From Escherichia coli (GTDB taxonomy: Bacteria > Pseudomonadota > Gammaproteobacteria > Enterobacterales > Enterobacteriaceae): a stretch of 64,000 nucleotides of DNA. This document shows positions 63,165-64,000 of the stretch, in pieces; position 1 is the first letter of the stretch, and each line of letters starts with the position of its first letter. The notes beneath the pieces were generated by a model that saw only the letters and a program-made list of their open reading frames with translations, did no database searches and was not told the origin of the DNA. The stretch lies in NCBI RefSeq assembly GCF_002854065.1, contig NZ_CP024147.1; one strand, given 5' to 3'. Both the position numbers and the translations under genes were made by a program.

Positions 63165-63280
63165 ACTCGATGCTCATCACTATGTTGACTAGACTGGCCC
63201 CCTGAATCTCCAGACAACCAATATCACTTAAATAAGTGATAGTCTTAATACTAGTTTTTAGACTAGTCATTGGAGAACAG

Positions 63281-63646
63281 ATGATTGATGTCTTAGGGCC
63301 GGAGAAACGCAGACGGCGTACCACACAGGAAAAGATCGCAATTGTTCAGCAGAGCTTTGAACCGGGGATGACGGTCTCCCTCGTTGCCCGGCAACATGGT
63401 GTAGCAGCCAGCCAGTTATTTCTCTGGCGTAAGCAATACCAGGAAGGAAGTCTTACTGCTGTCGCCGCCGGAGAACAGGTTGTTCCTGCCTCTGAACTTG
63501 CTGCCGCCATGAAGCAGATTAAAGAACTCCAGCGCCTGCTCGGCAAGAAAACGATGGAAAATGAACTCCTCAAAGAAGCCGTTGAATATGGACGGGCAAA
63601 AAAGTGGATAGCGCACGCGCCCTTATTGCCCGGGGATGGGGAGTAA
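63281..63646 (+). CDS. insC: IS2 transposase OrfA (InsC)
   Basis: ORF 63236..63646 trimmed to [41 protein letters not shown]... (121 aa). Confidence 0.9.
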
Positions 63647-63999
63647 GCTTAGTCAGCCGTTGTCTCCGGGTGTCGCGTGCGCAGTTGCACGTCATTCTCA
63701 GACGAACCGATGACTGGATGGATGGCCGCCGCAGTCGTCACACTGATGATACGGATGTGCTTCTCCGTATACACCATGTTATCGGAGAGCTGCCCACGTA
63801 TGGTTATCGTCGGGTATGGGCGCTGCTTCGCAGACAGGCAGAACTTGATGGTATGCCTGCGATCAATGCCAAACGTGTTTACCGGATCATGCGCCAGAAT
63901 GCGCTGTTGCTTGAGCGAAAACCTGCTGTACCGCCATCGAAACGGGCACATACAGGCAGAGTGGCCGTGAAAGAAAGCAATCAGCGATGGTGCTCTGAC
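63604..63999 (+). CDS. insD: IS2 transposase OrfB (InsD), N-terminal part, in -1 frame relative to insC; truncated by window end
   Basis: -1 frame reads [44 protein letters not shown]...; A6G slippery run just upstream. Confidence 0.7.
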
Positions 64000-64000
64000 G

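Follow-up and report, generated by a model that had tools for sequence, protein, structure and literature searches.

IS2 insertion at the VspR-like/helicase gene junction of an Escherichia coli integrative island

Polar insertion of IS2 into an operon is a known event of textbook kind. When IS2 lies antisense to the operon, an arrangement called 'orientation I' in the gal literature of the 1970s, the insertion is strongly polar. The element is bounded by repeats of 42 bp on the left (IRL) and 41 bp on the right (IRR), an A6G frameshift window has been described in it, and its P-IRL promoter faces inward (PMC3299598). An outward -35 element is located in IRR, and IS2 is able to activate neighbouring genes, for example ampC, acrEF and neoR (PMC9330008). 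The second described system that concerns the present locus is VspR (VC0177), encoded in VSP-1 of Vibrio cholerae, which represses the dncV/capV CBASS operon. Within the VspR family, function is known for this V. cholerae protein only (bioRxiv 10.1101/2023.04.04.535582).

The locus described here lies at the right end of a 64,000-nucleotide stretch of E. coli DNA, referred to as the window throughout, in which a copy of IS2 adjoins a helicase gene. Positions outside the window are given on L001, a locus of the E. coli CUWW06 record NZ_CP182139.1, unless another locus is named.

The IS2 element and its target

The last 811 bp of the window (63190..64000, plus strand) are the left part of IS2 and match IS2 copies in many E. 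coli genomes at 100%. The whole element measures 1331 bp, and its last 520 bp lie past the window end. Its first base is window position 63190, reading TAGACTGGCC..., and at the junction between 63189 and 63190 the native sequence ...CTATGTTGAC gives way to TAGACTGGCCCCCTGAATCTCCAGACAACC... of the element. IRL (42 bp, 63190..63231, plus strand) opens with TAGACTGGCCCCCTGAATCTCC and carries the inward-facing part of the IS2 promoter region. The gene insC (orfA; 63281..63646, plus strand) reads away from the helicase gene and codes for a protein of 121 aa, the IS2 repressor TnpA, that matches the NCBIfam model NF006928 'IS2 repressor TnpA' with 276 bits (cutoff 229). An A6G slippery window, recognized in the sequence at 63598..63604 (plus strand), would allow the programmed -1 frameshift that produces the OrfAB transposase. 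The 5' part of insD (orfB; 63605..64000, plus strand), which corresponds to the DDE transposase part, runs past the window and belongs to a joined CDS annotated at L001 9582-10810. Precomputed annotation places rve and rve_3 domains on the transposase product, and RefSeq labels the IS2 copy 'IS3-like element IS2 family transposase, programmed frameshift'.

The complete element was found in CUWW06, where it occupies L001 9491 to 10821 (1331 bp) and ends in ...GGGGCAAATCCA. The arms of its terminal inverted repeat are imperfect (L001 9500-9532 and 10781-10813; 33 nt, 79% complementary). Many other E. coli genomes have IS2 copies that agree with it at 100% over the full 1331 bp, and a chance match is for that reason not an issue. 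An IS2 copy with a coverage of at least 80% is present in 4058 of 5426 E. coli genomes. In CUWW06 the pentanucleotide TTGAC borders IS2 directly on both sides. The left copy of this 5-bp direct repeat is at 63185..63189, and the right copy, outside the window, at L001 10822-10826. The copy thus combines the length and identity of IS2 with its terminal repeats, its orfA/orfB -1 frameshift and DDE domain, and a 5-bp target-site duplication (TSD). It is IS2, an already known element, and RefSeq annotates it. A first-pass annotation of this DNA had correctly given the identity of the element, its boundary at 63190 and its orientation, as the sequence, the NCBIfam match and the complete element in CUWW06 all attest. 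The reading of insC/insD away from the helicase, which it had also reported, agrees with insC being on the plus strand and the helicase on the minus strand. This copy is apparently intact, and its identity to widespread copies suggests that it may be competent for transposition.

The helicase gene itself (61920..63164, minus strand, with its ATG at 63164) codes for a predicted SF2 helicase of the XPB/RadD-like, DExH type. It is frameshifted in the window, where its product counts 414 aa; the intact frame of 462 aa would reach about window position 61777. Its designation as a helicase in the first-pass annotation is upheld by the Walker A motif GAGKT and the DExH motif DEIH in the translation, as well as by a Pfam ResIII match of 47 bits (cutoff 22.5). 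The Helicase_C match, at 21.3 bits, falls just under its cutoff of 23.5. The match to the RadD-like NCBIfam model (E = 1.5e-14) is far below the equivalog cutoff, the closest solved structures are XPBII and RadD (E around 5e-6), and PADLOC v2 returned for the helicase only weak partial matches to PbeA, a type IV REase and DinG.

When IS2 and one TTGAC are removed in silico, a reading frame of 189 aa is restored. It ends in ...KVLGQHSDEHRVC followed by a TGA stop codon that overlaps the helicase ATG, and the overlap of stop and start comprises 7 nt (GT ATG TTG A; ATGTTGA). The insertion point lies 8 codons before the stop of this gene, hereafter the VspR-like gene. Since IS2 sits inside a gene whose stop overlaps the helicase ATG, both genes are affected. 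The 3' remnant of the VspR-like gene (63158..63189, minus strand) consists of GTCAA, which is the TSD copy and carries the Gln181 codon, of the codons for HSDEHRVC and of TGA. The spacing of about 26 bp previously reported between IS2 and the helicase ATG is close to the actual 25 nt (63165-63189). The position upstream of the ATG therefore stands, but the site is neither a promoter nor intergenic DNA and lies inside the 3' end of the VspR-like gene.

The empty site predicted by this reconstruction exists. It was found in strain 100416 (human stool, Gambia; L002) as a stretch of 639 bp with 100% identity, and in that strain the VspR-like gene (WP_032288315.1) and the helicase gene are both annotated and overlap. 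The flanks of IS2 in CUWW06 align with strain 100416 at 99.98% and 99.95% identity; exactly 5 bp, those of the duplication, are shared by both alignments, and TTGAC is present once only in the IS2-free strain. The right end and the TSD, to be sought on an extended contig according to the first-pass annotation, were thus located in CUWW06, and the comparison with strains lacking IS2 that it recommended yielded the exact empty site. Its further statement that identical flanking sequence in IS2-free strains would speak against the insertion inverted the logic: strains of this kind have been found, and it is by them that a simple insertion is classically proved. The same comparison supports the suggestion that an operon had been split. 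By it, the VspR-like and helicase genes make up a predicted operon that IS2 has split.

In CUWW06, RefSeq annotates on the minus strand a 'hypothetical protein' of 209 aa that runs from the right flank into the right end of IS2. This is the VspR-like protein as modified by the insertion: it loses its last 8 residues, HSDEHRVC, and gains an IS2-encoded tail of 28 residues, for a total of 209 aa. In the lost tail the terminal Cys is invariant and an H-x-x-E-H pattern is largely conserved (45 homologues).

The 189-aa protein bears precomputed VspR_N and VspR_C tags (Pfam PF27213 and PF27192), which are also found on all full-length homologues. Our own Pfam scan of the protein gave no match, the local Pfam copy being one without VspR_N and VspR_C models. 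A PADLOC v2 scan of the VspR-like protein gave no match, and the VspR-like/helicase pair fits no PADLOC v2 defence system model. In the PDB the protein weakly matches MJ223 (E = 0.07), which we take to be a winged-helix protein. Homologues with 51-98% identity occur in Salmonella, Buttiauxella, Enterobacter, Leclercia and other E. coli. In every context examined, the gene is part of a trio formed by a divergent gene for a 103-aa XRE-type HTH protein, the VspR-like gene and the gene for a 462-aa helicase; in Leclercia, Enterobacter and other E. coli islands, the proteins of the trio retain 56-77% identity. The 7-nt overlap, ATG(T/C)TGA, is kept in the E. coli, Leclercia and Enterobacter homologues. 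A stop/start overlap is the usual signature of translational coupling, and its strict conservation argues that coupling of the VspR-like gene and the helicase would matter. Upstream of the VspR-like gene, a consensus scan found a promoter-like site at L001 11430-11401 (minus strand). Other truncated VspR-like alleles were also encountered, indicating that lesions occur elsewhere in the gene as well.

Predicted consequences for helicase expression

Taken as a whole, the locus is very probably best explained by a standard IS2 that splits a two-gene operon and cuts off the helicase. Before the insertion, a promoter region shared with the divergent XRE gene would have driven the VspR-like gene and then the helicase. 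IS2, which moves by a copy-out/paste-in mechanism, would have transposed into this operon of a rare integrative island of about 25 kb, entering 8 codons before the VspR-like stop and duplicating TTGAC, with its transposase genes antisense to the operon and IRL facing the helicase. The helicase ATG keeps 25 nt of native upstream sequence; an extra 1336 bp separate it from the promoter-like site, the start/stop overlap is destroyed, and the ATG is now about 1.36 kb further from the operon promoter. The fused VspR-like frame stops 87 nt into IS2, and about 1.27 kb of untranslated antisense IS2 RNA would separate it from the helicase. The antisense IS2 RNA counts 389 C vs 318 G and has many windows in which C exceeds G. 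Long untranslated C-rich RNA is a typical substrate of Rho and gives rise to polarity. Rho-dependent polarity and the loss of translational coupling would together strongly reduce or abolish helicase expression. The Shine-Dalgarno-like sequence of the helicase itself is weak and, with coupling lost, its translation would therefore be expected to be lower still. On these two grounds, polarity and lost coupling, a substantial silencing of the helicase is probable.

IS2 itself would not compensate for this loss, because the one outward -35 documented for it belongs to IRR, which lies away from the helicase at the other extremity of the element. Visual inspection shows a poor -10 (TGACCA) after the IRR -35, and in the consensus scan no hybrid promoter at the IRR/TSD junction reached the threshold. 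The same scan yielded no minus-strand promoter-like site above threshold inside IS2 or at or near IRL; the IRL region holds TTGTCT-18-TCTAGT, which agrees with the consensus at 8 of 12 positions and is below the scan threshold. The search for a reading frame of at least 20 aa leaving IS2 and ending at the TGA that overlaps the helicase ATG was also negative. A speculative frame of 18 codons with a TTG start is the sole candidate leaving IS2 that could restore coupling. Against silencing, transcription may still cross IS2 or start at a weak promoter that happens to be present in the IRL region, and the retained 25 nt hold a weak ribosome-binding site (GAG), so that any transcript may be translated.

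If such read-through sufficed, if the helicase used its own ribosome-binding site and if the altered VspR-like protein still worked, the insertion would be neutral. The replacement of 8 C-terminal regulator residues and no more, the persistence of the allele in many isolates and a negative search for an intrinsic-terminator-like site on the minus strand inside IS2 are in keeping with neutrality. It is nevertheless unlikely, as 1.27 kb of untranslated C-rich RNA is what Rho typically acts upon, the strictly conserved start/stop overlap implies that coupling matters, and the regulator has lost a terminal Cys and most of an H-x-x-E-H pattern conserved among 45 homologues.

IS2 is not the only IS3-family element to have entered this junction. 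In Salmonella (L007-L010; L008 6554-7810), an IS3 of 1257 bp that is 99.9% identical to E. coli IS3 and flanked by the 3-bp TSD ATG leaves 13 nt between its end and the helicase ATG downstream, and its site is 10 bp away from that of IS2. This copy sits in the S. enterica chromosome and on a 302-kb plasmid, the island being otherwise identical (99.98%); P0002 is named from serovar Agona. In Enterobacter hormaechei (JBHGUM010000009.1; L040 5641-6884), an IS3-family element of 1244 bp, 82.5% identical to IS3 and with the TSD AAG, ends 34 nt upstream of the helicase ATG in a homologous module of 71% identity. IS2, IS3 and the E. hormaechei element share one orientation, with the transposase antisense, IRL adjoining the helicase and the VspR-like frame left almost whole; the chance probability of such a shared orientation is 0.25. 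Taken alone, the three insertions may be compatible either with a target hot spot for the IS3 family or with selection to uncouple or silence the helicase. That the 35 nt upstream of the helicase ATG form a recurrent target, at which a costly XRE/VspR-like/helicase module is repeatedly switched off or rewired by selection and not by chance or a simple insertion hot spot, is a tentative reading that we consider possible but doubtful; the alternation of the helicase between A8 and A7 in several backgrounds would belong to the same pattern.

Rewiring could also take the form of activation. An outward promoter from the left end of IS2, or a hybrid formed at the junction, would then make the helicase constitutive and free of control by the VspR-like and XRE proteins. 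Activation would explain why the helicase frame and its 25-nt leader are preserved, and it would suit three independent IS3-family insertions located 13-34 nt upstream of the ATG, with none inside the 1.4-kb helicase gene. The orientation common to all three, with IRL adjoining the helicase, and the documented activation of ampC, acrEF and neoR by IS2 (PMC9330008) point the same way. That orientation, however, has the chance probability of 0.25 already mentioned, the documented outward -35 is in IRR and not in the helicase-facing IRL, and the consensus scan was without a minus-strand promoter-like site in or near IRL. Moreover, the window and the Salmonella IS3 allele both carry a frameshifted helicase gene, and this is better accounted for by decay than by selection for expression. 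Activation is consequently quite improbable, and silencing by a polar insertion is retained as the preferred reading.

Alleles of the junction and of the helicase A-tract

The part of the window from 62700 to 64000 was compared by megablast with 5,426 complete E. coli genomes, and the IS2-helicase junction was found in one of them, CUWW06 (wastewater, Thailand; NZ_CP182139.1). The window differs from NZ_CP182139.1 by 6 mismatches and one 1-nt indel over about 60 kb (1-49913 and 53701-64000). The 6 substitutions are all in window 1-49913 (49.9 kb), and the indel, in 53701-64000, is an A7/A8 difference. These mismatches and the indel rule out that the window is the exact CUWW06 RefSeq record. 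Judging by the alignment, its source is the CUWW06 clone, a very close relative, or another assembly or polishing of the same clone.

Allele contigs were gathered through exact-protein look-ups and classed by junction and homopolymer length (30 loci). The empty site is combined with A8, which keeps the frame intact, in L002, L032 and L034-36, and with A7, which shifts it, in L022-26. IS2 is combined with A8 in CUWW06, L037 and L038, and with A7 in the window and L027-31. The 209-aa fusion frame was present on at least 14 contigs, one of which was seen in 18 samples. The insertion is accordingly neither an isolated event nor a product of assembly, but has become fixed in a lineage. Both IS2 junctions were recovered among the allele contigs. 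A misplacement of IS2 at this site by assembly is conceivable, as the element is a multi-copy repeat found at 8 places in the CUWW06 chromosome and as, in one metagenome contig (L014), the same right junction is linked to an autotransporter gene that has no relation to this locus. It is nevertheless of negligible probability: the 5-bp TSD is perfect, both junctions were obtained independently from a complete genome and from many short-read contigs whose ends fall within IS2, and the empty site differs by IS2 plus 5 bp only.

In the metagenome contig just mentioned (L014 4555-8630; ENA contig k141_46274), which has the VspR-like/IS2 right junction, a pertactin-type autotransporter gene takes the place of the helicase on the opposite side of IS2. 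Either a rearrangement mediated by IS2 or a chimera formed across the element during metagenome assembly could account for it.

The single indel between the window and CUWW06 falls in the helicase gene. On the coding strand, the window has an A7 homopolymer (61927..61933, minus strand; T7 on the plus strand), in which one base is missing relative to the A8 of intact alleles. A8 is found in the RefSeq CUWW06 record at L001 8227-8234 and in strain 100416. With A7, the frame is shifted after about residue 412 and the product has 414 aa instead of 462. Alleles with IS2 and alleles lacking it include A7 and A8 alike, and the Salmonella alleles interrupted by IS3 have A7. As A7 is found in IS2-free alleles, the frameshift is not a consequence of the IS2 insertion; this distribution also implies that the tract has changed more than once. 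It is possibly a slippage hot spot, or an on/off switch. Several A7 alleles are from contigs of public sequencing runs or from draft genomes, presumably short-read assemblies for the most part. Judged from these other A7 alleles, and not from the source of the window itself, it is unlikely that the A7/A8 difference is solely a long-read homopolymer error. In the sequenced strain, the helicase gene is most likely a pseudogene.

The island, its cargo and comparison with known systems

In CUWW06 the region between gorA and dinQ is occupied by an island of about 25 kb (record 4426063-4451301), with the trio at one of its ends. The island, just past the right end of the window, was covered by L001 8077-19301 together with L039 1-15302. 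Besides the trio it contains a gene for an 869-aa SMC/LmuB/DndD-like ATPase, a truncated eukaryotic-type glutathione-synthetase-like gene and two ars clusters, and at the far end a site-specific integrase gene and five hypothetical genes. The same island is found with 99.98% identity in Salmonella chromosomes and on the 302-kb plasmid, which is of conjugative type. Few complete E. coli genomes have the module: the present allele is on 2 chromosomes, and variants that are about 73-75% identical are on 3 large plasmids.

The cargo beside the trio varies. Gabija-like GajA/GajB genes are found at L003 2814-6163, and a CTD10/MC6 conflict-system gene set with an integrase at L011 2519-5351 (E. coli L011-13, at the same gor-adjacent site). 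In Enterobacter hormaechei the cargo is a DncV-like/patatin/E1-E2 CBASS, which echoes the position of VspR beside CBASS in VSP-1. This varying cargo suggests that integrative defence islands of one family share the trio as their backbone or as a regulatory module.

Damage is also seen among the neighbours of the operon. In strain 100416 (L002 9945-12533), the neighbouring XRE gene and the SMC-like ATPase gene are damaged by a frameshift and an IS3-family insertion. In L022-L026 (1-1640) the SMC-like ATPase gene is split, and in L032 every gene is intact. The island shows general decay. An anticorrelation between damage to the helicase operon and damage to the SMC-like ATPase, as incompatibility of the two would produce, was considered and rejected, L032 having everything intact and L022-26 having both damaged.

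The finding itself matters little, as IS2 is among the best-studied insertion sequences and polar IS insertions are textbook. In this lineage, as far as the sequence tells, the VspR-like regulator is altered at its C-terminus and the helicase is probably dead, being promoter-less and, in the window, also frameshifted. Annotations of an intact 'DEAD/DEAH box helicase' are therefore to be read with care. The trio with its varying defence cargo, three IS3-family insertions within 35 nt and a slippery A-tract make up a candidate module for study, which could have a function in the island backbone or in defence regulation that carries a fitness cost.

Compared with the canonical IS2 of E. coli K-12 (IS3 family; insC/insD corresponding to orfA/orfB), the element is the same and the insertion site alone is particular. 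As in the classical polar IS2 insertions (gal, lac), a promoter is separated from a downstream cistron by an IS whose transposase is antisense, and by analogy Rho-dependent polarity would be expected. Unlike those insertions, the present one removes a coupling junction and alters the C-terminus of the proximal product. It also resembles the IS2 hybrid promoters (ampC, Jaurin & Normark 1983; acrEF; cited in PMC9330008) in that IS2 is located tens of bp upstream of a start codon; there, the -35 of IRR is combined with a resident -10, whereas here IRL faces the gene and a promoter-like match is absent in the scan. As to the regulator, the 189-aa protein has VspR_N and VspR_C and adjoins defence-type cargo, like V. 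cholerae VspR. In contrast to the latter, its gene appears, from the arrangements compared, always to have a divergent XRE gene as its partner and to be coupled to the gene of a 462-aa SF2 helicase.
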